NCBI GenBank assembly: GCA_041663185.1
Contig: JBAZQY010000001.1
Location: 19,448-83,447, forward strand
Source: Minisyncoccota bacterium
GTDB taxonomy: Bacteria; Patescibacteriota; Minisyncoccia; Phycocordibacterales; UBA9973
Reading direction: 5' to 3'
DNA: 64,000 bases
Shown piece after piece: positions 3,711-15,238 of the stretch (the first letter of the stretch is position 1; every line of letters starts with the position of its first letter). The notes under the pieces are model-generated. The model was not told the origin of the DNA. It saw nothing but the letters and a program-made list of their open reading frames with translations, and made no database searches. Both the position numbers and the translations under genes were made by a program.

Positions 3711-4741
3711 AGAGAAAAATTTTTAATATTATATAGATCGATATCTTCTTCGGCTTTTTTGATTTCTTCTTTTGTTCTATCATCCTCAAGATGTAAATTA
3801 TCATCTATACTTTCCTCCCCGACACTAGGGACGACTTCTTCAACCACAACAGTAGTGCCTGGTTGTGGTTCTTGGGTTGCGATGAATTTCTCAAGCATAC
3901 TGTTTGGATTGTTTTCGCCACTTGATTTGATTAGATTAAGAATTGTGTGTAAATCATCATTGGTAAAGAAATCAATCGTGATATACCCACCATTTTCTTT
4001 CTTTTCAATGTGGACACGAGTGCCAAGAGATTCTTGCAACCTTTCTTCCATTTCAGCAATTTCTGGATCAGGCATATACTCTTTTTTGCGAACGCGATCA
4101 AAGGCAATCTTGCGTGCTGCTTTCTCGGCATCACGAACTGTCATTTTCTTAAAAACAATTTCTTTAAAAAGAACCATTTGCTCGGCTGGCCGATCAATCA
4201 ACATCAAAATTGGGCGTGTATGTCCTTCGCTTATTTTACCGGAGGATAGGGCGTCCAAAATTTCTTGAGGTAAGGCAAGTAATCGCAAAGTGTTAGAAAC
4301 GTATTCGCGACTTTTTCCAACTTTCTTGCCGATATCTGTGTGAGTAAATTTAAATTCTTCAACAAGTCGCATAAAAGCTCGAGCTCGCTCAACAGCATTC
4401 AAATCTTCACGTTGCAAGTTCTCAATAATCGCAATTTCGAGTTTAGCCATATTGTCATCTCCTACTCGAATAATTACTGGTATCTGTTCAATCCCGGCAA
4501 TCTTGGCAGCGCGTAGACGACGCTCCCCAGCGATGAGTTCGTATTCAACAGCAATACCTCCATCTTCTTTCTGAACTTCTTGCCTTGAAACAACAAGTGG
4601 TTGGAGCACACCATACTGACGAATTGAATCTGCTAAATCTTTCAATCGAGCTTCATCGAACTCACGACGGGGCTGAAAAGGATTTGGTTTAATTTTTCCA
4701 ATATCTACCCAAAAAATTGAATTATTATAAAGTTGAGACAT
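3707..4741 (-). CDS. parB: Chromosome partitioning protein ParB/Spo0J with acidic C-terminal extension
   Basis: ParB box GERRLRAAKIAGIEQIPVIIR plus an HTH region. Its stop converges on the rel stop with a 4-bp overlap. No parA is adjacent. Confidence 0.85.
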   Translation of the reverse strand: MSQLYNNSIFWVDIGKIKPNPFQPRREFDEARLKDLADSIRQYGVLQPLVVSRQEVQKEDGGIAVEYELIAGERRLRAAKIAGIEQIPVIIRVGDDNMAKLEIAIIENLQREDLNAVERARAFMRLVEEFKFTHTDIGKKVGKSREYVSNTLRLLALPQEILDALSSGKISEGHTRPILMLIDRPAEQMVLFKEIVFKKMTVRDAEKAARKIAFDRVRKKEYMPDPEIAEMEERLQESLGTRVHIEKKENGGYITIDFFTNDDLHTILNLIKSSGENNPNSMLEKFIATQEPQPGTTVVVEEVVPSVGEESIDDNLHLEDDRTKEEIKKAEEDIDLYNIKNFSL

Positions 4742-4839: not shown

Positions 4840-4868
4840 TTGAAAAATAAAAAGAAACCGTGTATAAT
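4840..4868 (+). promoter_or_regulatory. Consensus sigma70-type promoter for tRNA-Tyr
   Basis: TTGAAA at 4840-4845, a 17-bp spacer, TATAAT at 4863-4868, about 19 bp upstream of the tRNA 5' end. Confidence 0.5.
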
Positions 4869-4886: not shown

Positions 4887-4969
4887 GCGTCGGTGGCAGA
4901 GTGGTCAATTGCATTTGACTGTAAATCAAACGCCTTCGGGCTACGTAGGTTCGAATCCTACCCGGCGCA
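4887..4969 (+). tRNA. tRNA-Tyr(GTA): tRNA-Tyr (anticodon GTA) with long variable arm
   Basis: Acceptor stem gcgtcgg/ccggcgc with one GU pair, anticodon loop ctGTAaa, T-arm gtagg-ttcgaat-cctac, long variable arm. CCA is not encoded. Confidence 0.85.
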
Positions 4970-6455
4970 CTCTAGAGGACTCAATGTCTGAAATTGAAGA
5001 TTTTAGCTTGAAAAGAAAGGATGTATCAATGGTTCCAAATGCGCTGTTTTTGAAAGTGAGACCCTTTGGAAATTGGAACCATTGGAGTCGTATTTTTGTC
5101 TCAATAGGAGCATCACGCCAAACCTGACTTGGATTTCTAAAATATTCTTCTAATTCCTTCATAATTGAAAGAATGTCAATATTTAAGCTTGGCATTGCTA
5201 CCAATTGAGAGTTCAATTCCAGGAGTTCCTGGTCAATTAGTTCAAGTTGCTCTTTCAAGACCTCATTCTGGATAAATCCTTCAAGATTCTTTTTTATAAC
5301 ACTGGTTTGTTTGTATTTCAGTACTTGAATTTGCCTTTTCAATTTCTCTGTATTATTTCTTGTCTCTTGGAATTTCTTAGAAAAGTTCTTTTTAATTGCC
5401 AACTTCAGTTTCTCGATCTTTGATGAATCAAGGCTGTACTTATCCAGAAATTTCACAAAATCGTTCTCAAATTTATCCCGATTATAATTTGTATCCTTTC
5501 CTCCAAACCGGTAGTAGGGATATTTTTTGTCTCTGCCCTTTGACCAACTCCCGGTCAATTTTTTACCAATTTCATTGATCACGAATCTCCTCAATGGAAA
5601 GTCAGGATGATCCGTTATGTGCGTTGAATGTTTATGACCTTTATTCTTAAGGACCCTTTGTGCCTGATCGAAAATCTCCTCTGAAATTATTGCCGGGTAA
5701 AGGCCATTGTAAATTGCTCCAAATTTGATAATACGACCGCAGTAAAGTTCATTTCGGAGTATGGTGTAGAAATATCCTTTTGAAAATGGCTTTCCACTTT
5801 TATTAGCTAATCCTTTCTTTGTCATCATCTTTCTCACTTCCTCAGTCGTATATACATTACTTGCAACCAATGTAAACGTCTTGTGCACAATTGGAGCAAT
5901 TTTTGAATCCTTTACAATTGTAGCTTTTCCATTGACTTTTGCATTTAAATATCCAATAGGTGCCATCCAAACATATCTACCATCCCGCACAGCCTCCTTC
6001 ATTCCATTAGTGCTTCGTTCAGCCCTAATATCGTTATCAAATTGGGCAATATTGGCCATTGTATTTTCCATAAACCGACCAACAGGATTGTTTTCAAAAT
6101 ACTCAGAAGTCGATTTGATTTCGACTCCATACCTCTTTAATAATAGTCGTATTTGACTGTAATCATCTGTATTTCGGGACAATCTATCTAGTTTATAGAT
6201 TATCACTGCCCTGATCCCGTTCTTTTTTTCAGCACAATATTTAAGTAGCTTTTGAAGCTCTGTACGATCTGCAGTCTTGGCACTTTCACCTTGTTCCACA
6301 AAGACTTCATTAATTTCATAATCATTTTTATTAGCATATTCCCGGCAGATTCTCTCCTGGGTAACTAAGCTATTGCCTTCATCAGCCTGTTCCTTTGTTG
6401 AAACCCGGACATAGATTACGCACCTTTTCAATGCTGTTTGATTTGTAGTATTCAT
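4941..6455 (-). CDS. Large serine recombinase (integrase)
   Basis: Resolvase catalytic domain with YVRVSTKEQ (Ser nucleophile), recombinase domain, zinc-ribbon/coiled-coil C-terminus. 504 aa. The last roughly 10 codons overlap the tRNA-Tyr 3' end. Confidence 0.85.
   Translation of the reverse strand: MNTTNQTALKRCVIYVRVSTKEQADEGNSLVTQERICREYANKNDYEINEVFVEQGESAKTADRTELQKLLKYCAEKKNGIRAVIIYKLDRLSRNTDDYSQIRLLLKRYGVEIKSTSEYFENNPVGRFMENTMANIAQFDNDIRAERSTNGMKEAVRDGRYVWMAPIGYLNAKVNGKATIVKDSKIAPIVHKTFTLVASNVYTTEEVRKMMTKKGLANKSGKPFSKGYFYTILRNELYCGRIIKFGAIYNGLYPAIISEEIFDQAQRVLKNKGHKHSTHITDHPDFPLRRFVINEIGKKLTGSWSKGRDKKYPYYRFGGKDTNYNRDKFENDFVKFLDKYSLDSSKIEKLKLAIKKNFSKKFQETRNNTEKLKRQIQVLKYKQTSVIKKNLEGFIQNEVLKEQLELIDQELLELNSQLVAMPSLNIDILSIMKELEEYFRNPSQVWRDAPIETKIRLQWFQFPKGLTFKNSAFGTIDTSFLFKLKSSISDIESSRVRRVGFEPT
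4956..4970. repeat. attL-like direct repeat (last 15 nt of tRNA-Tyr)
   Basis: tcctacccggcgcac is identical to 10986-11000. Confidence 0.65.
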
Positions 6456-6681
6456 TTGATTTCTTATTCAGATATGCCTCAATTAGAATATTAGCATAGT
6501 AATCCAAAGCGACATCTTCTGAATCATTATTTAAACTATTAATGCCGAAAGAGGGACAACGACTTAAGGGTTTGTTGCTACACAAAAGCTCTCGTTGCCC
6601 CTCTTTTGGCTCAACCATTTTCTTAAGTATTTGGCTTTCATGTAGCTTACTCATAATATAAAATTTCTTAAAAATTTTCAA
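6382..6681 (-). CDS. Small hypothetical protein upstream of the integrase (possible directionality/regulatory factor; start probably internal)
   Basis: ORF only. Same strand as the integrase and overlapping its start. Confidence 0.3.
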   Translation of the reverse strand: MKIFKKFYIMSKLHESQILKKMVEPKEGQRELLCSNKPLSRCPSFGINSLNNDSEDVALDYYANILIEAYLNKKSNEYYKSNSIEKVRNLCPGFNKGTG

Positions 6682-6833
6682 CTAAAGCCTTGATTTGCTC
6701 TTCGAGGTCTTTGTTGTGTTTTCACTTTAGAGATTTTACTAAAATATTAGGAATGAGTAAGAAGCGAAAAATAACCTATTTCGTTATATTTCATCCTCTT
6801 TTAAGCACCATATAAAATGATTATGCTATTCTT

Positions 6834-8153
6834 ATGAGTGAAGAATCATGGAAAAGACAAGAAATCACGCCAATTGGATTGACTACCTGGCGAAGTGAAT
6901 ACAAGCCTTTTGGGATTAAAGACAATGATCGGCTTGGGCATATTTATGCAATTGGTAAAACTGGCACTGGAAAAAGTACTCTGCTAGAGAATATGGCTAT
7001 TTCTGATATCATTCGAGGTAATGGTCTTTGTGTAATTGATCCTCATGGAGATCTAGCTTCCAATATCCTTAATTACATACCGGAAAGTAGGATTAAAGAT
7101 GTTATTTACTTTAATCCAGTTGATAAGGAATATCCAATTGCCTTCAATCCTCTATCTGGCATTCATCCAAATCATCATCACTTAGTTGCTTCAGGGTTGA
7201 TTTCAACTTTCAAGAAGATTTGGGCTGATTCATGGGGGCCGAGAATGGAATATATTTTGCGCTTCGCACTCTTGACTTTGCTTGAAAATAGAAAGTGTAG
7301 TTTGCTAGATATTCAACCACTGCTCACTGACCAAACATTCCGAAATTCCATTTTGTCGCGTTCAATTAGCCCGTATATACTTTCTTTCTGGCACAATGAA
7401 TTTGATAAATATCCGCCGTCACTCAAGTCGGAAGCAATCGCACCTATATTAAATAAGGTAGGGCTATTTTTAGCCAGTACACCACTGAGAAATATTGTCG
7501 GCCAAAATTCGCGTGGATTTAATCTTCAAGAAGTTATGAATAATGGTAAAATTTTAATTGTGAATCTTTCAAAAGGAGAACTTGGTGAAGATGTTACAGC
7601 CATTCTTGGGAATATGATTGTCACTAACATTCAGCTTGCCGCCTTATATCGTGCCAGACAACCTGAACATACAAGGAAACCCTTCTATTTATATGTTGAC
7701 GAAATGCATTCTTTTGTCTCATTGTCTTTTGCAGATATTTTGGCTGAAGCCAGGAAATATCGGTTGTCTATTTTTCTTTCACACCAGTATATTGAACAAC
7801 TTCATGAAAAAATTAGAGCAGCCATCTTTGGAAATGTTGGTACTCTAATATCCTTCCGTATCGGGGCAACTGATGCTGAGTATTTAGAAAAAGAGTTCAA
7901 ACCGGTTTTTGATCAATACGATCTTATCCAATTGCCAAAATATAATATGTACTTAAAGCTGATGATTGATGGAGCAACTTCCCAGCCATTTAGTGCTGAG
8001 ACTAAGCCAATTTCCTTTTTGCCTCAAAAAAATATTTCTCAAGTGATTACATTTTCACAGGAAAGATATGGTTCAGAACGAAAAAGAGTAGAGGAAACTA
8101 TTTTAGCAAAGTATAAATCAAATGAAGGACGGCAAGATCAGAAACTATTTTAG
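6834..8153 (+). CDS. Soluble P-loop NTPase, T4SS coupling protein (TraD/VirD4/TrwB)- or FtsK/HerA-like, paralog 1
   Basis: Walker A GKTGTGKST, VIDPHGDL, YPIAFNPL, Walker B YLYVDEMHSF, then ARKYRLSIFLSHQYIEQL. No TM segment. Confidence 0.7.
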   Translation: MSEESWKRQEITPIGLTTWRSEYKPFGIKDNDRLGHIYAIGKTGTGKSTLLENMAISDIIRGNGLCVIDPHGDLASNILNYIPESRIKDVIYFNPVDKEYPIAFNPLSGIHPNHHHLVASGLISTFKKIWADSWGPRMEYILRFALLTLLENRKCSLLDIQPLLTDQTFRNSILSRSISPYILSFWHNEFDKYPPSLKSEAIAPILNKVGLFLASTPLRNIVGQNSRGFNLQEVMNNGKILIVNLSKGELGEDVTAILGNMIVTNIQLAALYRARQPEHTRKPFYLYVDEMHSFVSLSFADILAEARKYRLSIFLSHQYIEQLHEKIRAAIFGNVGTLISFRIGATDAEYLEKEFKPVFDQYDLIQLPKYNMYLKLMIDGATSQPFSAETKPISFLPQKNISQVITFSQERYGSERKRVEETILAKYKSNEGRQDQKLF

Positions 8154-8264
8154 GAATTTAAAAATATAAACAAATAAATTTATATTTTTACTAAGTCAAG
8201 TTATTATAACATCTTCCGTATCAGGTATAGTACTTCAGATTATTAACCTTTAAAACAGAAAATT

Positions 8265-8804
8265 ATGATTTATGCTATTATTCTAGCCGTCATTGTGATT
8301 CTCTTTCTTCTATTCCGGCCAAGACGCAAAAAAATTGGTGAGGTCGGACAACACTGGAACCATTTCTTTCCCAATTTCCAGTTCTCATCTGCAGAATTTT
8401 ATTCTTTAGTTGAAGAAAAGATTAAAGCTCAAGCAATGCCTAATACCCGAATCTCTAGGGTAAATTACGCCGAATCAAGCATTATTTCAAATAGACGAGA
8501 ATACTTACATATAGAGAGGAAAGAAGACATTTTTGATATTTGTGCCGCTCCATTTGGAACAGGTTTTTTCGTCTCCTATTGGCTTGGAAAGCCAAAGCAT
8601 GCTTTCAGAAATTTTCTTAGTAGAATACCTTACCTTAGTCAAATATCTGAAGGTTGGCAAGGTTCCACGTATTATCTGGCTGATACAGCAAGTATGTTTA
8701 GGGGTGCAGTTGTTAGTTCAATATCAGAGGCCATTGAAGAAATAACAACAAGAAAAGGTTTGCGTGGATTGTCAGAAAGTGAGCAATTTGCGATGGTTAG
8801 ATGA
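8265..8804 (+). CDS. Single-pass membrane protein (N-terminal TM helix), unknown function
   Basis: N-terminal MIYAIILAVIVILFLLF then RPRRKK. The stop overlaps the start of the next gene (ATGA), suggesting translational coupling. Confidence 0.5.
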   Translation: MIYAIILAVIVILFLLFRPRRKKIGEVGQHWNHFFPNFQFSSAEFYSLVEEKIKAQAMPNTRISRVNYAESSIISNRREYLHIERKEDIFDICAAPFGTGFFVSYWLGKPKHAFRNFLSRIPYLSQISEGWQGSTYYLADTASMFRGAVVSSISEAIEEITTRKGLRGLSESEQFAMVR

Positions 8805-10975
8805 GTTACTTTGAATTCTTAACAAAGCAATTTTACACCTGGGAGAAGCGTGGCCGGGGATGGGAGGTATTTTCCTTTCCTGTCGATTTAGAACCTCCGT
8901 ACGAGCCTTTTTTCTCTCATTCCATCCCATATGACAATGCTACCCGTGTCCTTGATGATGGTCTTCGCCCGACTATTTTTTCACGATTAATAACAGGGGT
9001 TAGAAACCTATTCATTTCAAAACCCATTATTTCTGAAGAAATTGTGGAAGATGAACCTGTCCCGCCTTTTACTTTTGATGATGAACCTCTAACAGCCTTC
9101 ACTGTCCTATTACCAAAAGATCAACAAATCAATTTCGAGGAATCTCTTCAATTATTATTAATGCTGTCCATGTCGATGTATCCAATTAGCTTTGAGATCA
9201 TCGGCAATAGCTCGTTCATTAAAATTCAATTTGTATGTCGAAAGCCTGATACACCAAATATTCAAAATCAAATAAAAGCCTATTTTCCGGCATGTCATTT
9301 TGATTTTGGAATATTAGAAGCAATCCTACCTGAAGGGAAACAAGGATATCTTGTAGATTTCGGTTTAAGCCAAGAATTCATGAGACCTCTTTCAGTGATC
9401 AAGAATTTTACGCTTGACCCATATATTGGTCTATTTGGAATTTTAGAGAATCTTTCAGAAGACGAGCAAGCAGTTATTCAAATATTATTTAAAAGTGCTC
9501 AAAACTCCTGGTCAGAAAGTATTATTCGTTCAGTTACAGACAATCAAGGTGATCCATTTTTTCTCGATGCACCAGAGATGGTCAAACTTGCTGAAGAAAA
9601 AATTTCCGCACCTCTTTTTGGGGTAGTGATTCGAATTATAGGACTCAATGAGGATGGTAGCGACTGGTTAGCTAAAAAACTTTCAGGGAAATTAATACAG
9701 ATTACCGGTTCACCATATAATAGATTAATTCCTCTTTCGACTGAGGGATATGATGAAGCTAATTTTTGTGAAGACATTCTACTTCGCCAATCTCATCGAT
9801 TGGGAATGTTACTTAACAGCAAAGAATTAGTTTCATTAATTCATTTTCCCTCTATCTCTGTCGTTTCTAGTAAACTTGAACGAGCAATTAGGAAAACCGT
9901 TAAAGCCCCTAAGATCTTTTTAGACCATAAGCTTGTACTAGGAAGTAATTTTCATCAAGGCCAGGCAAAGGATGTGACTATTGGCCCCGAACAAAGGTTG
10001 AAACATATCCATGTTATAGGAGCAACCGGCACTGGTAAGTCTACTCTTCTCCTTAACATGATAATTCAAGACATTAGAAACGGAGAAGGATTAGCAGTGA
10101 TTGACCCTCACGGTGATTTAATTGAAAGTATCCTACCCTGGATTCCTCCAATTCGTCACAATGATGTAATCATCTTTGATCCATCTGATACTGAATATCC
10201 AATTGCCTTTAATATTCTTACAGCTCATTCAGAAATTGAGAAAGATATCTTATCATCTGATCTTGTAGCTGTCTTTAAGCGTCTTTCCACCAGTTGGGGA
10301 GATCAAATGAATTCAGTCTTTGCCAATGCTATTCTTGCCTTCCTGGAAAGTGATAAAGGAGGAACCTTAATCGATTTACGCAAATTCCTTATCGAAAAGG
10401 AGTTTCGAGCTGATTTTCTGAAAACTGTTAAAGACCCCTCAATTACATATTACTGGAACAAGGAATTTCCAATTTTAAAAAGTACTTCAATTGGGCCAAT
10501 TTTGACCAGGTTGGATGCTTTCTTGAGACCGAAAGTCATCAGAAATATGGTTGCCCAAAACAAAAGTCTGGATTTTGAAAAAATCCTGGATGACAAGAAG
10601 ATACTGCTTATTAAGCTCTCACAAGGGTTAATAGGAGAAGAAAATAGCTACCTCTTGGGAGCATTCATCGTCTCAAAACTTCAGCAAATAACGATGTCTC
10701 GCCAAGTGAAAGCCAAAACTGCTCGCGGGAATTTCTATTTATACATTGATGAGTTCCAGAATTTCATCACCCCTTCCATGTCCGCAATACTCTCTGGTGC
10801 CCGAAAGTATCACTTAGGGATGGTCTTGGCACATCAGGGTATGCAACAGCTTGATAAGAATAACTCTGAAATCGCAAGCTCTGTTATTGCAAATGCCGGC
10901 ACTCGTATCTGCTTTAGGATTGGCGACATTGATGCGAAGAAGCTTGAAGCTAACTTTACACACTTTGATGCGTAG
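8801..10975 (+). CDS. Soluble P-loop NTPase, T4CP/FtsK-HerA-like, paralog 2 with roughly 390-aa N-terminal extension
   Basis: Walker A GATGTGKST, VIDPHGDL, YPIAFNIL, Walker B YLYIDEFQNF, ARKYHLGMVLAHQGMQQL. Clear paralog of 6834-8153. Confidence 0.7.
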   Translation: MSYFEFLTKQFYTWEKRGRGWEVFSFPVDLEPPYEPFFSHSIPYDNATRVLDDGLRPTIFSRLITGVRNLFISKPIISEEIVEDEPVPPFTFDDEPLTAFTVLLPKDQQINFEESLQLLLMLSMSMYPISFEIIGNSSFIKIQFVCRKPDTPNIQNQIKAYFPACHFDFGILEAILPEGKQGYLVDFGLSQEFMRPLSVIKNFTLDPYIGLFGILENLSEDEQAVIQILFKSAQNSWSESIIRSVTDNQGDPFFLDAPEMVKLAEEKISAPLFGVVIRIIGLNEDGSDWLAKKLSGKLIQITGSPYNRLIPLSTEGYDEANFCEDILLRQSHRLGMLLNSKELVSLIHFPSISVVSSKLERAIRKTVKAPKIFLDHKLVLGSNFHQGQAKDVTIGPEQRLKHIHVIGATGTGKSTLLLNMIIQDIRNGEGLAVIDPHGDLIESILPWIPPIRHNDVIIFDPSDTEYPIAFNILTAHSEIEKDILSSDLVAVFKRLSTSWGDQMNSVFANAILAFLESDKGGTLIDLRKFLIEKEFRADFLKTVKDPSITYYWNKEFPILKSTSIGPILTRLDAFLRPKVIRNMVAQNKSLDFEKILDDKKILLIKLSQGLIGEENSYLLGAFIVSKLQQITMSRQVKAKTARGNFYLYIDEFQNFITPSMSAILSGARKYHLGMVLAHQGMQQLDKNNSEIASSVIANAGTRICFRIGDIDAKKLEANFTHFDA

Positions 10976-10985
10976 GGCGAGAAAT

Positions 10986-11000
10986 TCCTACCCGGCGCAC
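10986..11000. repeat. attR-like direct repeat
   Basis: tcctacccggcgcac, identical to the tRNA-Tyr 3' end. Confidence 0.65.
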
Positions 11001-11060
11001 AATATTAAAAAATCTAAGCTTCTGCTTGGATTTTTTAAATTATGTCTCGCCGGTAGAAGC

Positions 11061-11190
11061 AAACTGCTTTGCTTCTAGGTAGGATTCGAAGACCTTGAGC
11101 TTGTGGTTTTAAATTTTAATTTCAAGCCACACGAAAGGTGTACTGACCCCGTAAGGGTTGAAAAGCGTACTCGCGGTCCTACCCACTTGC
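11061..11190. repeat. Degenerate tRNA-3'-end/att remnant, homologous to the tRNA-Leu-linked remnant at 20087-20167
   Basis: Shares gaagaccttgag and cgaaaggtgtac with 20087-20167. Contains an inverted T-arm-like taggattcgaa and a partial third copy gtcctaccca near 11178. Confidence 0.45.
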
Positions 11191-11350
11191 TTCCTTGATT
11201 CCCCGTAAATTATGTGGTAATTTGTAAGTAAATCTACTGCTCCTAAAAATATCTGACTTTTGTTATATTTGTTTAGTTTATTTAGTTCCTTATGGGAATT
11301 TAATAAACTAAATAAATTAACATTAAACTCATAAATAAAAAATTACTTCT

Positions 11351-11944
11351 ATGAAAACAAAGAGGTTAGAAAACGTATCGTCACTGCAAGATGTGCTGCT
11401 GAATCCTTATTATAAAGGATTGATTAAAAAGGCTAAAAATCTGCAAGCCCAGGCTGATGATTTAACAAGGTCGGCATGTTTTGCAAGAGGCAAGTTGGCA
11501 TATTCTATAAGCCAAAAACTTTTAGATCTTGTCCCCAAAGGACCCGAGAGAATGCTATTAGAGCTGGAAGGAAGCTCTTTTGCTACAAGGAGATCTGATC
11601 CTGCATATTTTATAGCCTTGTATCCAAAAATGACAGGCCGGGGAATAACCCTTCTGTGCGAACTTGTAAATTCCTCCATGGACCGCTCTCGCAACCTGGA
11701 ATATAGAAAGATTTTTTGGGGAAACGGTTGTGTAATGCTCACCGAGTATGGAATTAACCATACTCTAAAAATAGCCGACCCGGAAACCTTCATGCAGAAC
11801 GCAATTTCTATCATCAATGAGGCCTGGGCCAAGAACAACCTAGGATATCTTTCCTTTGATAAGCTTGTTGACGATGAGAAAAACGGCCAAAGGTTTAGGA
11901 TATTATTTATGCCAGGGAAATGGGAAACTAAAGCCAATACCTAG
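11351..11944 (+). CDS. Hypothetical protein
   Basis: 197-aa ORF followed by a strong terminator. No recognisable motifs. Confidence 0.5.
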   Translation: MKTKRLENVSSLQDVLLNPYYKGLIKKAKNLQAQADDLTRSACFARGKLAYSISQKLLDLVPKGPERMLLELEGSSFATRRSDPAYFIALYPKMTGRGITLLCELVNSSMDRSRNLEYRKIFWGNGCVMLTEYGINHTLKIADPETFMQNAISIINEAWAKNNLGYLSFDKLVDDEKNGQRFRILFMPGKWETKANT

Positions 11945-11967
11945 ATGTATGATATTGGTAATCGCTT

Positions 11968-12000
11968 AAAGGAGGTTTTAAACCTCCTTTTTTATTTTTT
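11968..12000. terminator. Intrinsic terminator (possibly bidirectional)
   Basis: 10-bp stem aaaggaggtt/aacctccttt with a tetraloop, then tttatttttt. Confidence 0.7.
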
Positions 12001-12025
12001 AATTTCTGATTTAAATATACAATCT

Positions 12026-12538
12026 TTAATTTTCAGGTAATTCTTCTACCTCTTCAATTTCAACTTTTCCTTTTAATTCTTTTTGAAACGGAGAATAATA
12101 AGATTTTACATATATTTTCTTTTTATTTAAAATAAAGGGGAAATATTCTCTATCAGCTGGCATCATTTTATCAAAAGGTAAATTATTTATACTAAAAAAT
12201 GTCGGAGTAATCATCTCTTCTGTTTCTATTAATTCTCCAGTCCAATTTTCTAATAAAAAGAAGTGAACTCGACAAATATATGTACTGCCGTCACTTTTTT
12301 CATTATGAAAATCAACAACAGCTATTTTTTCTAAATCATCTATACTTGCAATCAATCCCGATTCTTCTTTTAGCTCTCTAATTACTGAGGTTTTGGGATT
12401 CTCTCCTTCTTCTATCCCCCCACCATATCCATTCCAACATCCCGCTCCAATCTTTCTAGTTTTTATAGCAAGAAGAACTTTATCTCCCTTTATCGGAAGA
12501 CAAACTGTTGCATTAAACAATATTTTTTCTGTTTCCAT
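12026..12538 (-). CDS. NUDIX hydrolase
   Basis: Nudix box GGGIEEGENPKTSVIRELKEESGL. Confidence 0.8.
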   Translation of the reverse strand: METEKILFNATVCLPIKGDKVLLAIKTRKIGAGCWNGYGGGIEEGENPKTSVIRELKEESGLIASIDDLEKIAVVDFHNEKSDGSTYICRVHFFLLENWTGELIETEEMITPTFFSINNLPFDKMMPADREYFPFILNKKKIYVKSYYSPFQKELKGKVEIEEVEELPEN

Positions 12539-12550
12539 AAATAGTAAGAC

Positions 12551-15238
12551 CTACTTAGTATTTATTTTATTTCTCATCCTTACATTTGAAGCGATTTTTA
12601 TTTTTTTCATTTCTATCACCATTTCATTTTCTTTCATCGTTACATAAACAGTATCTCCCTTTTTGACTCCACGAGAGATGATAAATGTCGCCACAGGATT
12701 AAGAATTTTATCTTGAATAAGTCGTCCAAGTGGTCGAGCCCCATAATGTGGGTTATAACCTTCTTTAGCTAAATAAGTAAGTGCCTCATCAGAAATATCT
12801 AATTCAATTCCTTTTCCAAGCAAACGTTCACGAATAATTTTAATTTTAATATCAACAATACTGCGGATAACTTCTGGAGAAAGAATATCAAAGACAATGA
12901 TATCGTCGAGTCTATTTAGAAATTCTGGTCGGAAATGATCTTTGAGGGCATCAAGAATTTTATCTTTGGTTGCTAAATATTCATCCACTTTTGAATTATT
13001 TGTAAATCCAAGTGATTCCATTTTTTCAATCAACTGAGAACCGATATTGGAAGTCAAAATAATAATTGTATTTTTGAAATTAATCACTCGCCCTTTGGCA
13101 TCTGTTAAACGCCCTTCATCAAGCACCTGGAGAAGAATATTAAAAACTTCTGGATGAGCTTTCTCGATTTCATCAAATAGAACAACAGAATAAGGTCGAT
13201 GGCGAACCGCTTCAGTCAAATTGCCTGATTCATCATAACCAACATATCCAGGTGGTGAGCCAATGAGTTTCGAGACACTGTGACGCTCCATATACTCACT
13301 CATATCCACCCTGATAAGGGCCTTATCGTCATTGAACATAAACTGGGCTAGGGCTTTTGTTAATTCTGTTTTCCCTACTCCCGTTGGACCAAGAAAAATA
13401 AATGAGCCAATCGGTTTATTGGGGTCAGAAATTCCAGCTCGACTACGGCGAACAACATCAGAAATCTTTTTGATTGCGACATCCTGACCGACAACTCGAG
13501 TACGTAATTCATCTTCCATTTTGGCTAATTTTTTTAATTCTTCTTCAAGCATTTTTTCAAGAGGTATACCCGTCCAGCGCGCAACAACAGAAGCAATATC
13601 TTCGGTAGTTATTTCTTCTTTCAAAATGCGACGTGATCTTTGAAGTTTCTTGAGACGAGAAAGTTTCGTTTCTAATTTATTTTTCAAATCAGGAATTTTA
13701 CCATAACGAATTTCGGCCGCACTTCCTAGATCTGCTCGCATTTCAGCATTCTCGGCTTCAAGACGAAGTGATTCTAAATCTTTTTTAATTTGCCTGATCT
13801 CAAGAACTGTCTCTTTTTCATTTTTCCACTTCAATTCAAGTTCGTGTGTTTTTTCTTTTAAATTTGCGATTTCTTTCTCAATATCTTTCATCCGAGCTCG
13901 AGCTTCTTTATGGGTATCTTTTTTATCAGTAGATACTTCTTTCATTAGGGCTTCTCTTTCAACTTCAAAACGCATAATTTTTCTATCAGCTTCTTCTAAA
14001 ACTTGAGGTTTATTCTCAAGAGCAAGGCGAAGTGAAGATGAAGCCTCATCGATCAGGTCAACGGCCTTATCTGGTAAATATCTATTTGTAATATACCGGG
14101 CACTTAAATTCACCGCCGAGATAATCGCATCATCGGTAATGCGCACTCCGTGGAAAAGTTCATACTTCTCTTTAAGTCCACGTAAAATTGCGATTGCATC
14201 CTCAATATTTGGTTCATCAACATATACTGGTTGAAAGCGTCGAGCCAAGGCTGGGTCTTTTTCGATATGTTTCTGATATTCTTTTAGAGTCGTCGCACCT
14301 ATGGCATGAAGCTCTCCTCTGGCAAGAGCCGGCTTTAACATATTTGAAGCATCAAGAGAACCCTCTGAACTTCCTGCTCCGACAATTGTGTGAATCTCAT
14401 CAATGAAAAGAATTATCTTGCCATTTGATTTCTCAATTTCTTTCATAATTCCACGCAATCTTTCTTCGAATTCTCCACGGTATTTTGTCCCAGACAAAAG
14501 TAATCCCAAATCAAGAGCCACAACTTCTTTATCTCTCAAACTTTCAGGAATATCATTCTTGGCAATACGAATAGCAAGAGCTTCAGCCACAGCAGTTTTC
14601 CCAGTACCTGCTTCTCCGATTAAAATCGGATTATTTTTAGTGCGTCTTGATAATATTTGCATCATTCGCATAATCTCAGCTTCACGTCCAATGACCGGAT
14701 CAAGCTTATCTTCTCGGGCCAGAGTTGTCAGATTACGAGTAAATTTAGTTAGGAGTTTTGGTTTTTTAGAAGAGTTCGCTTCGGTAACATTTTCACTTCG
14801 AAGTAATTTCAATACACTAATAACTTTATCTTTATCTATTTTGAAACGCCCAAGTAGTTCGCGAGCTTCCCCAGGTACTTCAAGCAGTGAAACAAATAAA
14901 TGCTCAGTCGAAACAAATTCATCCTTGAGAGCAAGAGCCACTTTAGTTGAATTTTCTATAACTTTGGCTAAATCAGGAGTTAAATAAATCTGATATGAGG
15001 GTGAGATTGTGTTGCGATTTTCTGGTGATTCTATCATCTCAACTAAATTATCTGTCATCAACATTGTATCGACTTCCATTTTATCTAATATAGAAATAAT
15101 CAATGAATCTTCTTGAACAAGAAGAGCTGTCAGTAAATGCAAAGAGTTCACGTGGTTCTGTCCACGCTCAATAGCCAGCTCATGAGCTTTACGAATTACT
15201 TCCTTTGCTTTAGTTGTAAAATTGTTAAATGGGGGCAT
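12551..15238 (-). CDS. clpB: ATP-dependent chaperone ClpB
   Basis: Clp N domain, two AAA+ modules (GEAGTGKTAVAE; GPTGVGKTELTKALA), long coiled-coil middle domain. 895 aa. Confidence 0.9.
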   Translation of the reverse strand: MPPFNNFTTKAKEVIRKAHELAIERGQNHVNSLHLLTALLVQEDSLIISILDKMEVDTMLMTDNLVEMIESPENRNTISPSYQIYLTPDLAKVIENSTKVALALKDEFVSTEHLFVSLLEVPGEARELLGRFKIDKDKVISVLKLLRSENVTEANSSKKPKLLTKFTRNLTTLAREDKLDPVIGREAEIMRMMQILSRRTKNNPILIGEAGTGKTAVAEALAIRIAKNDIPESLRDKEVVALDLGLLLSGTKYRGEFEERLRGIMKEIEKSNGKIILFIDEIHTIVGAGSSEGSLDASNMLKPALARGELHAIGATTLKEYQKHIEKDPALARRFQPVYVDEPNIEDAIAILRGLKEKYELFHGVRITDDAIISAVNLSARYITNRYLPDKAVDLIDEASSSLRLALENKPQVLEEADRKIMRFEVEREALMKEVSTDKKDTHKEARARMKDIEKEIANLKEKTHELELKWKNEKETVLEIRQIKKDLESLRLEAENAEMRADLGSAAEIRYGKIPDLKNKLETKLSRLKKLQRSRRILKEEITTEDIASVVARWTGIPLEKMLEEELKKLAKMEDELRTRVVGQDVAIKKISDVVRRSRAGISDPNKPIGSFIFLGPTGVGKTELTKALAQFMFNDDKALIRVDMSEYMERHSVSKLIGSPPGYVGYDESGNLTEAVRHRPYSVVLFDEIEKAHPEVFNILLQVLDEGRLTDAKGRVINFKNTIIILTSNIGSQLIEKMESLGFTNNSKVDEYLATKDKILDALKDHFRPEFLNRLDDIIVFDILSPEVIRSIVDIKIKIIRERLLGKGIELDISDEALTYLAKEGYNPHYGARPLGRLIQDKILNPVATFIISRGVKKGDTVYVTMKENEMVIEMKKIKIASNVRMRNKINTK

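Follow-up and report, generated by a model that had tools for sequence, protein, structure and literature searches.

Immediately 3' of a tRNA-Tyr gene in a Minisyncoccota bacterium of the Candidate Phyla Radiation (CPR; Patescibacteria), within a 64,000-nucleotide stretch of contig JBAZQY010000001.1 (assembly GCA_041663185.1; hereafter the window, to which all positions refer), lies a 6-kb segment encoding a large serine recombinase, two ATPases and a membrane protein. Comparison with related contigs that lack the segment shows window 4971-10985 to be DNA inserted at the 3' end of the tRNA gene, and comparison with its counterparts in other genomes shows that the larger ATPase (ATPase 2) is truncated, the right end of the segment being a deletion junction inside its gene. 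The interpretation that we prefer, with a probability of about 0.6, is that the segment was inserted by its serine recombinase and that this copy arose by deletion from a member of a new family of compact integrative elements with a transfer-type module.

The insertion is apparent from relatives in which the same locus is unoccupied. When metagenome contigs were scanned for the final 23 nt of the tRNA-Tyr, 120 loci were returned (denoted, with the others below, by L numbers), many of which share the synteny of the window, RelA-ParB(-)-tRNA-Tyr(+)-1.3 to 2.7 kb-ClpB(-); five such loci, on related Paceibacterota contigs (L094, L174, L190, L185 and L162), have neither the recombinase nor the ATPases. 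The tRNA-Tyr of the window is identical at 84/84 positions to those of L094 and L174, and its ClpB is 89% identical to that of L174. By BLASTN, window 4817-4970 matches L094 4133-4286 at 94% identity and window 10986-11184 matches L094 4272-4465 at 78.5%; the L094 stretch 4133-4465 is uninterrupted and its 15-mer is common to both alignments. Further, a terminator scan detected a plus-strand hairpin at 11005-11038, the native terminator of tRNA-Tyr, which the insertion has moved 6 kb from the tRNA. This hairpin is homologous to the one directly 3' of tRNA-Tyr in L094, L091, L154 and L193, and the right flank of the window is likewise orthologous to the terminator and the structured region X that directly follow tRNA-Tyr in relatives. 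It is because L094 aligns collinearly across the junction, and because the terminator follows tRNA-Tyr in relatives, that we regard 4971-10985 as inserted DNA. An earlier note on this DNA had claimed site-specific insertion at the tRNA-Tyr 3' end; the continuity of L094 and the five ParB-tRNA-Tyr-ClpB contigs without the element bear this out, and the empty site that the note expected in related genomes is present in these contigs, which are from other species. An independent Logan assembly (SRR6484324) also reproduces the entire insert and both junctions. The Logan contig (L001, k=31) corresponds to window 4942-13075 and ends 29 nt to the left of the boundary between tRNA and element at 4970/4971, at the place where a de Bruijn graph would branch if reads shared the tRNA and then diverged; this break could reflect an empty-site subpopulation or merely another organism with the same tRNA.

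The target itself, a tRNA-Tyr (GTA) at 4887-4970 on the plus strand (ARAGORN; Rfam, 62.3 bits), is intact, forms the attL side of the insertion (att, attachment site) and has a promoter-like site upstream at 4840-4868 (11/12 match). As the earlier note observed, its final 15 nt, TCCTACCCGGCGCAC (left core copy, 4956-4970), recur exactly at 10986-11000 (right core copy). A pattern search found these plus-strand copies to be the only two in the 64 kb, even with two mismatches tolerated, and 100 shuffles gave no expectation of a second copy by chance. The right repeat is longer than 15 nt: 10971-11000 reads CGTAGG-GCGAGAAAT-TCCTACCCGGCGCAC, the T-stem and acceptor strand of the tRNA with a different loop, and is a mimic of the T-arm at 4942-4970, where the tRNA-Tyr has CGTAGG-TTCGAA-TCCTAC... 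in the corresponding stretch. However, the second 15-mer is not in itself the footprint of integration that the note took it for, since element-free relatives carry one too, many of them as an exact or near-exact copy 145-280 nt 3' of tRNA-Tyr.

The gene abutting the right repeat is that of ATPase 2 (8801-10975, plus strand; 724 aa), which retains a VirB4-like N-terminal domain and an ATPase domain of the type found in type IV coupling proteins (T4CPs) and VirB4. A database search returned 4315 relatives, and the best 120 of these are nearly all about 1000 aa long. Over its whole length ATPase 2 can be aligned with residues 1-725 of P0002 (1004 aa), to which it is 74% identical; across the 27 loci compared, orthologues measure 997-1062 aa, the exceptions being an interrupted 860-aa copy (L027) and the window, the only one with 724 aa. 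At the DNA level, homology to L002, L003, L005 and L006 reaches ...TTTGATGC at 10972 and then ends, with TAG immediately after, the stop codon lying 10 nt before the right repeat. The same DNA comparison delimits a plus-strand tRNA-like stub, CGTAGGGCGAGAAAT (10971-10985): the tRNA-like homology begins exactly where the homology to the ATPase 2 orthologues stops, and the stub is, on this alignment, the deletion junction. About 280 C-terminal residues are missing, comprising the end of the motor domain and a PD-(D/E)xK nuclease domain; that the motor domain itself is clipped follows from its paralogue ATPase 1, which extends about 85 residues beyond the point equivalent to the end of ATPase 2. 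The missing C-terminus is absent elsewhere in the window, which rules out a split gene or a permuted integration. What the earlier note described as a complete, minimal 6-kb element thus ends on the right in a deletion junction within the ATPase 2 gene.

Counterparts of the segment reveal a recurrent architecture. The backbone order is a small ORF and the recombinase on the minus strand, followed on the plus strand by ATPase 1 and, at a variable distance, by the transmembrane (TM) protein and the large ATPase. With an orthologous recombinase (41-68% identical) it is found in L003 (Bacteroidales), L005, L010, L086 and L212 (Mucilaginibacter); of the small ORF-recombinase pair, L002 keeps a remnant of the small ORF only. 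A homologue of the TM protein is encoded directly 5' of the large ATPase in 29/32 loci. In roughly half of the loci ATPase 1 is encoded no more than 10 kb from the large ATPase, either next to the TM gene or separated from it by 4-6.5 kb of unrelated genes: E1/E2, HNH and a WYL regulator in L010, DUF4238 in L011, DUF6573, RadC and a methyltransferase in L019, and proteins secreted by the type IX secretion system (T9SS) in L002 and L008. The module occurs in Bacteroidota, Planctomycetota, Acidobacteriota, Eisenbacteria, Binatia, Desulfobacterota, Verrucomicrobiota and CPR bacteria. The ATPases, which the earlier note had treated as one-off cargo, are thus, to judge by gene order and homology, the conserved backbone of a widespread uncharacterised module that recurs across phyla. 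ATPase 2 of the Paceibacterota window is 70-74% identical to its counterparts on two Bacteroidota contigs, P0002 (L002, JGI 3300035696, apparently of this phylum, to judge by its T9SS-type cargo) and P0006 (from a Bacteroidales metagenome-assembled genome), and ATPase 1 is up to 82% identical to those on Bacteroidota contigs; at the level of sequence, these identities imply recent transfer across phyla with differing cell envelopes.

Searches of phages and plasmids with the full-length ATPase (tblastn) gave distant partial matches only (Bacillus phage G gp156 and T4CP-like genes of plasmids), and a search of IMG/VR for the full-length ATPase gave no match; a prophage or plasmid origin was rejected, the module not having been found on sequenced phages or plasmids. 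Delimiting direct repeats above chance were absent from the elements of L003, L005, L010, L208 and L211, as expected for serine recombinases. In the searchable literature on DUF8128, on VirB4-nuclease fusions and on tRNA integration by CPR serine recombinases, a description of the module was not found. A distant group of ATPases (about 31% identical, about 890 aa) combines a VirB4-like N-terminal region with a T4CP-type ATPase and has no nuclease. It is represented by L032 (9560-12226) and about 50 other Patescibacteria loci (L032-L085), and in L032, the sole locus of the group whose neighbours were scanned, the ATPase gene stands among the housekeeping genes DnaJ, CysS, CorA and DnaX. A 175-aa ORF upstream of the Patescibacteria 'group B' ATPase was considered as a homologue of the TM protein and showed no similarity to it. 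CPR genomes hold thousands of orphan 'T4CP' genes with no assigned role (PMC12102498), and the relatives of about 890 aa are probably among them.

ATPase 1 (6834-8153, plus strand, divergent from the recombinase; 439 aa) is a soluble T4CP-like P-loop ATPase that matches TrwB_AAD_bind (38.2 bits) and TraG-D_C (22.5 bits) in Pfam and PHROG 5156 (2.6e-58), and has orthologues of 76-82% identity in L002, L003 and L005. Both ATPases of the window exceed the Pfam cut-offs for these two families, their ATPase domains are 41% identical to each other, and both lack the N-terminal TM helices of canonical T4CPs; the NCBIfam TraD/VirD4 models fall far under cut-off (52 vs 366 bits), and the Pfam match to FtsK_SpoIIIE is below its own (16.5 vs 24 bits). 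Between them is a single-pass membrane protein (8265-8804, plus strand; 179 aa) with one N-terminal hydrophobic helix, MIYAIILAVIVILFLLF, and no family match above threshold; its stop codon overlaps the start of ATPase 2 as ATGA, an arrangement of translational coupling. The earlier description of two paralogous P-loop ATPases flanking a single-TM protein with an ATGA overlap is hence upheld by the Pfam matches and the 41% identity. Likewise, scans of the element's ORFs against Pfam, NCBIfam, PADLOC and PHROG found no relaxase, Rep, capsid or toxin family, in agreement with the note, and no membrane component of a mating pore (VirB6, VirB8 and the like) was found at the locus, whose one membrane protein is the 179-aa single-pass protein.

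For the large ATPase, NCBIfam VirB4_CagE scores 33 bits against a cut-off of 643, the Pfam matches are to T4CP families and not to CagE_TrbE_VirB, and the sequence relatives of its middle domain among solved (PDB) structures are the coupling proteins DotL and TrwB. The C-terminal domain of the full-length orthologues has the alpha-beta-beta-beta-alpha-beta core and the conserved acidic residues of a PD-(D/E)xK nuclease. Its identity was resolved by the fold search, in which AF1548, the Upx defence nuclease, FokI, Can2 and NucS are closest, the hints from sequence being sub-threshold only (SfsA RE domain, 0.007; CoiA nuclease, 0.097). The intact large ATPase is a VirB4-like ATPase tipped with a PD-(D/E)xK nuclease. 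Of the earlier designation of the two proteins as a DNA-translocase-like pair, the ATPase assignment stands, but the large one is VirB4-like rather than a generic DNA translocase.

The recombinase (4941-6455, minus strand; 504 aa) matches Resolvase and Recombinase in Pfam, with an N-terminal resolvase domain at residues 13-161 (PF00239: 118 bits, cut-off 23.3; 4.8e-34) and a PF07508 domain (47.2 bits, cut-off 21.1; 2.8e-12), and PHROG 95 'integrase' spans residues 4-454 (6.7e-75). Its length falls within the 400-700 aa of large serine recombinases and is complete relative to 120 homologues, and Pfam detects no zinc-ribbon domain in it. With both Pfam domains above cut-off, the large serine recombinase with the catalytic-serine motif YVRVSTKEQ that the earlier note placed inside the left repeat is confirmed, as is its reading into the tRNA: its 3' end overlaps tRNA-Tyr by 30 nt, the last 10 codons being antisense to the tRNA 3' end. 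The nearest relatives are 53-68% identical, and many are from Nomurabacteria, Pacebacteria and Parcubacteria. Several of them end in GFEP, GLEP (GLEPAT) or GIEP (GIEPTS), which is the tRNA T-arm translated antisense; in the same clade, the recombinase gene of L208 (10001-11559) runs 64 nt into tRNA-Ala, and those of L210 (4080-5628) and L211 (8831-10379) run 33 nt into tRNA-Arg. The clade, on the evidence of these overlaps, habitually targets tRNA 3' ends in CPR bacteria. Other cargo in the L208, L210 and L211 elements comprises type III restriction-modification (R-M), PDDEXK, DUF5659 and an AAA_25 ATPase, and the same clade is accompanied in L087 by a reverse transcriptase and a Toprim protein; taken together, these loci resemble a family of small integrative elements of CPR bacteria whose modules can be exchanged. 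Targeting of a tRNA end with repair is unusual for serine recombinases, because integrative and mobilisable elements (IMEs) with such enzymes usually lie within a gene, between direct repeats that are very short (PMC5704250).

Just upstream of the recombinase and overlapping its start is a conserved 90-aa ORF (6382-6654, minus strand), whose counterparts at this place in L086, L087, L005 and L002 are 52-60% identical to it; a homologous ORF, likewise of 90 aa, is so placed in L003 as well. It stays with the recombinase though the cargo changes (L087), being present in five other loci, has no Pfam match, and shows the motifs CPSFGIN and EDVALDYxAxILIEAxLNKK; it may be an accessory or recombination directionality factor, or a regulator. 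Serine recombinases of a second, distant clade (about 25-30% identical) are encoded immediately 3' of the large ATPase in six loci (L010 13184-14788; L016 15170-16915; L017 13180-14979; L021 13114-14715; L028 2040-2888; L213 13907-15397). The 3' end of the L213 enzyme overlaps a comM fragment, and C-terminal fragments of comM flank the ATPase module in seven loci.

The history of the right repeat is bound up with the conserved, structured host region X (about 11044-11190, plus strand, outside the element). Right after the tRNA terminator X begins with GTGCGCCGG-hairpin-GTAGGATTCGAA, in which the two outer segments are the tRNA T-arm and acceptor strand reverse-complemented and split by a covarying hairpin; it ends with a small hairpin and GAAATTCCTACCCGGCGCAC, followed by a terminator of its own. 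This 3' end repeats the last 15-22 nt of tRNA-Tyr and constitutes the second 15-mer of the element-free relatives; in the window it is divergent and lacks the 15-mer. X was found 3' of tRNA-Tyr in L091, L193, L154, L203, L142, L138/L174, L119, L140, L199, L097, L121 and L088, and as tandem units in L094, L113, L140 and L154. For 11 X sequences RNAalifold predicts 31 pairs, of which 16 show compensatory changes, and neither X nor the region right of the repeat matches an Rfam family at gathering or E-value threshold. X may imitate a tRNA minihelix, it may regulate by pairing in an alternative way with the tRNA 3' end, or it may be built up of accumulated att scars. The X 3' end of L091, about 150 nt 3' of its tRNA-Tyr (locus 5008-5025, minus strand), is atypical in lacking the usual GGTGTACTG...TGTAA motif, and the tRNA-Tyr of L091 differs from that of the window at 8/84 positions; this 3' end may be the attR scar of a related element. 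Further right in the window, an inverted repeat at 11267-11317 (23 nt, 87% complementary, 5-nt spacer; ATTTGTTTAGTTTATTTAGTTCC / GGAATTTAATAAACTAAATAAAT) stands just 5' of a 197-aa ORF (11351-11944) with no assigned function.

Briefly, we propose the following course of events. The inserting enzyme would be the large serine recombinase, as a member of the clade that targets tRNA 3' ends. The site on the element would mimic the T-arm and acceptor strand of the tRNA (CGTAGG-loop-TCCTACCCGGCGCAC) and the crossover would fall inside the common 15-mer, and for these two reasons the tRNA would be left intact. The predicted recombinase sites are GCGTAGGGCGAGAAATTCCTACCCGGCGCAC|TCTAGAGG... and ...GGTTCGAATCCTACCCGGCGCAC|AATATTAAAA..., with GGTTCGAATCCTACCCGGCGCAC|AATATTAAAAAATCTAAGC as the predicted attB and GATGCGTAGGGCGAGAAATTCCTACCCGGCGCAC|TCTAGAGGACTCAATGTC as the predicted attP junction. 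The ancestor would have had a backbone of five genes, for the small ORF, the recombinase, the T4CP-like ATPase, the TM protein and a VirB4-like ATPase-nuclease of roughly 1000 aa. A deletion, presumed to be the cause of the truncation, would then have taken everything from codon 725 of the large ATPase gene to the edge of the tRNA-like att stub. We favour a history in which the 30-nt stub is the part of the element's attP that mimics the tRNA 3' end and the deletion was internal, because removal of 6,015 nt makes the window collinear with L094 and because the hairpin and X on the right are orthologous to the unit directly 3' of the tRNA in relatives. On this history, a deletion that ends exactly at the stub would be explained by the ability of a copy sparing the minimal attP still to integrate. 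The copy in the window is probably functionally crippled, as its sequence suggests, and possibly stranded. In intact elements the TM protein would anchor a VirB4-like hexamer, the two ATPases and the nuclease would process and translocate the excised circle in a minimal conjugation-like transfer or mobilisation, and the region between the ATPases would serve as a cargo slot.

Three other accounts of the locus have to be weighed against this history. According to the first, the second 15-mer is not an att site but belongs to a host X unit, whose 3' end it forms: a deletion later than the integration, starting at codon 725 of ATPase 2, would have taken with it the right end of the element, the true attR, the terminator and a first X unit except for its last 30 nt, leaving the island irreversibly stranded. 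Element-free relatives do carry ...GAGAAATTCCTACCCGGCGCAC at the distance from tRNA-Tyr given above, window 10971-11000 is identical at 30/30 positions to the X 3' end of L091, and the tandem units of L154, L140, L094 and L113 make a two-unit ancestor possible. However, the first, tRNA-adjacent unit of L094, L091, L154 and L193 is the one to which the hairpin and X right of 11000 are orthologous, and L094, the nearest relative, is collinear with the window minus exactly the inserted length; the account therefore needs an extra, otherwise unseen X unit, and the matching end of L091 is itself atypical and may be an element's scar. We consider it improbable, if far from negligible, and the window copy is a degraded derivative under either history. 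More doubtful still is an intact, minimal, currently mobile 6-kb element bounded by the 15-mers, with a complete ATPase of 724 aa. The exact direct repeats and the intact recombinase, ATPase 1 and TM genes speak for it; moreover, were the crossover central or right of centre in the 15-mer, a whole attP half-site could survive in the 25-30 bp on the left of that point (10971-11000), and a deletion derivative that retained it might have been mobile when it integrated. Against it, the other large ATPases, bar the interrupted one of L027, have their full length and are conserved past residue 725, in a stretch that takes in the last part of the ATPase domain, still present in the paralogue ATPase 1; the homology to orthologues stops abruptly at 10972, with a stop codon at once; and neither a circular junction nor a same-species empty site was recovered by protein look-ups or the pattern scan of viral contigs. 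Finally, the proposal that nothing here is mobile, the gene order being ancestral core and the repeat a natural duplication between tRNA and X RNA, accords with the presence of that duplication in element-free relatives and with the composition of the insert, whose GC content (0.366) is not set apart from that of the flanks (0.384 and 0.358). It is very improbable: five related RelA-ParB-tRNA-Tyr...ClpB contigs lack all four genes, which contradicts the lineage-wide conservation that the earlier note named as the alternative to an element, and counterparts of the genes, up to 74% identical, are found in unrelated contexts in other phyla.

As to function, DNA transfer has for us somewhat less than an even chance of being what the ATPase module serves; defence is a lesser possibility, though a substantial one, and other roles account for the remainder. 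A role in processing and translocation is favoured because the genes act as a backbone around a cargo slot, because the module is tied to serine recombinases of two clades, because RadC with ArdC or DUF6573 is found inside or beside the unit (L003 and L019), and because VirB4-like and T4CP-like motors with a small membrane partner parallel the energising core of a type IV secretion system (T4SS). The competing proposal is that the three genes of the ATPase module form an anti-phage or anti-plasmid defence carried as cargo of recombinase elements, with a membrane-anchored VirB4/HerA-like motor, a PD-(D/E)xK effector and a helper ATPase, the window copy being without the effector domain. It draws on the PADLOC mad8 matches and weak HerA matches; on the likeness of the nuclease fold to AF1548, Upx, FokI, Can2 and NucS; on neighbours such as a Gabija-like OLD+UvrD pair (L212), Multi_ubiq, ThiF and BubE genes with ImmA/IrrE (L005), E1/E2+HNH+WYL (L010) and DUF4238 (L011); on the type III R-M and reverse transcriptase cargo of the same recombinase clade (L208, L087); on a patchy cross-phylum distribution irrespective of envelope type; and on the absence of the module from sequenced phages and plasmids. 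However, unrelated genes split ATPase 1 from the pair of TM protein and ATPase 2 in about half of the loci, an interruption that is typical for the backbone of a mobile element and unusual in a defence operon; serine recombinases of two clades are linked to the module, other integrase types not having been systematically screened in the flanks; ArdC, which accompanies RadC, is a known antirestriction protein; and no defence-system model in PADLOC covers the set. We hold this defence reading to be possible but doubtful. Less likely again is the idea that the four-part set is a self-sufficient minimal DNA-transfer element with neither relaxase nor classical mating pore, in which the recombinase would excise the circle and the TM-anchored, nuclease-tipped VirB4-like motor would process and export it.

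Several observations weigh against insertion by the recombinase of an element with a transfer-type module. Occupancy varies only between species, the empty-site contigs being of different species from the window, and no attP or attB junction of this organism was seen in contig look-ups or in the scan of viral contigs. For an empty site or another context in the same population, contigs were looked up by exact protein: ParB is not on record there, and the 197-aa right-flank protein returned the same contig only; degenerate attP, attB, attL and attR patterns had no match of any of the four types in viral contigs. The identity of the stub to the host X-RNA end of L091 leaves room for a deletion that took the true attR. 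No relaxase, oriT, VirB6-type channel or Rep gene was recognised in the element, and for this reason transfer is argued by analogy only. ATPase 1 is close to the large ATPase in no more than about half of the loci and a serine recombinase is present in fewer than half; PADLOC gives mad8 matches (3e-16 and 3e-17, of the order of 1e-16 to 1e-17; 58-61 bits); and hosts of varied envelopes, defence-gene neighbours and the nuclease end fit defence equally well.

Among known systems, the staphylococcal cassette chromosome (SCC, as in SCCmec; recombinases CcrAB or CcrC) is likewise a small chromosomal cassette that large serine recombinases mobilise; it enters a conserved housekeeping gene at the 3' end, leaving the gene intact, and is built of a few backbone genes near the recombinase, including an ATPase or helicase, plus variable cargo; neither has conjugation or capsid genes, and the transfer route is not clear in either. 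The best NCBIfam matches of the window recombinase are CcrB, CcrA and XisF, but at 112 bits against a cut-off of 900 for CcrB and 81 against 700 for CcrA. Moreover, the target is tRNA-Tyr (comM in Bacteroidota) rather than rlmH (orfX), the backbone has VirB4/T4CP-like ATPases with a nuclease in place of the MCM-like Cch helicase, and the hosts are CPR bacteria, Bacteroidota and many other phyla. IMEs, among them those that encode a coupling protein of their own, share with the segment a compact integrated form with a site-specific recombinase and a VirD4/T4CP-like ATPase, and no mating-pore genes; some have serine recombinases, and their coupling proteins are classed as VirD4 (canonical) or TcpA (non-canonical) (PMC5704250). 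Unlike them, the window element has no recognisable relaxase or oriT, encodes an ATPase resembling VirB4, which is a component of the mating pore and not of IMEs in the systems known so far, and, compared with the serine-recombinase IMEs (PMC5704250), sits at a tRNA 3' end with a 15-nt repeat and a T-arm mimic. The nuclease domain that might nick DNA is deleted in the window copy. From integrative and conjugative elements it differs in having no relaxase family in the Pfam, NCBIfam and PHROG scans and no mating-pore component, its one membrane protein being the 179-aa protein.

With VirB4/TrwK of T4SSs the locus shares a P-loop ATPase apparently of the VirB4/VirD4 lineage encoded after a small membrane protein; in virB3-virB4, too, the small membrane protein is encoded immediately upstream and translationally coupled. 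However, the locus has no further T4SS genes beside it, similarity of the TM protein to VirB3 could not be detected, and we know of no VirB4 protein with a C-terminal PD-(D/E)xK nuclease. Precedents for DNA transfer by one membrane-associated ATPase of the FtsK/HerA/VirB4 superfamily with few or no other components are the actinomycete integrative and conjugative elements (AICEs), with their FtsK-like TraB, and the archaeal Ced import system. AICEs are likewise small and integrate in tRNA genes, and there is a weak NCBIfam match to CedD (1.6e-6); unlike in AICEs, the FtsK_SpoIIIE match is below cut-off and there are no Rep or Spd genes, and the Ced membrane components are absent from the element. 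AICEs mostly use tyrosine integrases, whereas the window element uses a serine recombinase. The HerA-nuclease defences (Sir2/DUF4297-HerA, NurA-HerA-like systems and MADS with mad8) also couple a P-loop translocase of this superfamily to a nuclease effector, and resemble the module in their defence-gene neighbourhoods and in the PADLOC mad8 and HerA matches. The similarity to MADS is confined to mad8-like matches, the element having no methyltransferase or other mad gene and matching no other PADLOC model; the N-terminal domain is VirB4-like and not a HAS-barrel as in HerA systems; and, unlike these defences, the module has a membrane partner and a second ATPase, and cargo genes interrupt the set.

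The integration of an island at a tRNA gene is ordinary and of a known kind. What appears new is a clade of serine recombinases that integrates at tRNA ends with a T-arm mimic, a cross-phylum module built on a VirB4-like ATPase-nuclease, of which no description was found in the searchable literature, and, as a by-product of the analysis, the X RNA. Targeting of tRNA 3' ends with repair is normally associated with tyrosine integrases, and the clade is a potential source of new site-specific integrases. For genome scans the locus holds two cautions: a perfect tRNA-end direct repeat can pre-exist at a locus, and a gene abutting an 'att site' needs to be checked for truncation. The window copy, being defective, is a pointer to its family and a poor experimental subject. 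If the module is a defence, it would be an undescribed system built on a VirB4-like motor. As a transfer apparatus, if it is one, it would rank with the smallest known systems of a conjugation-like kind and would provide a route for horizontal transfer into and out of CPR bacteria; and were the set a self-sufficient transfer element, it would explain copies of 74% amino acid identity in CPR episymbionts, Bacteroidota and half a dozen other phyla, and would give genes a means of passing between CPR bacteria and other cells.

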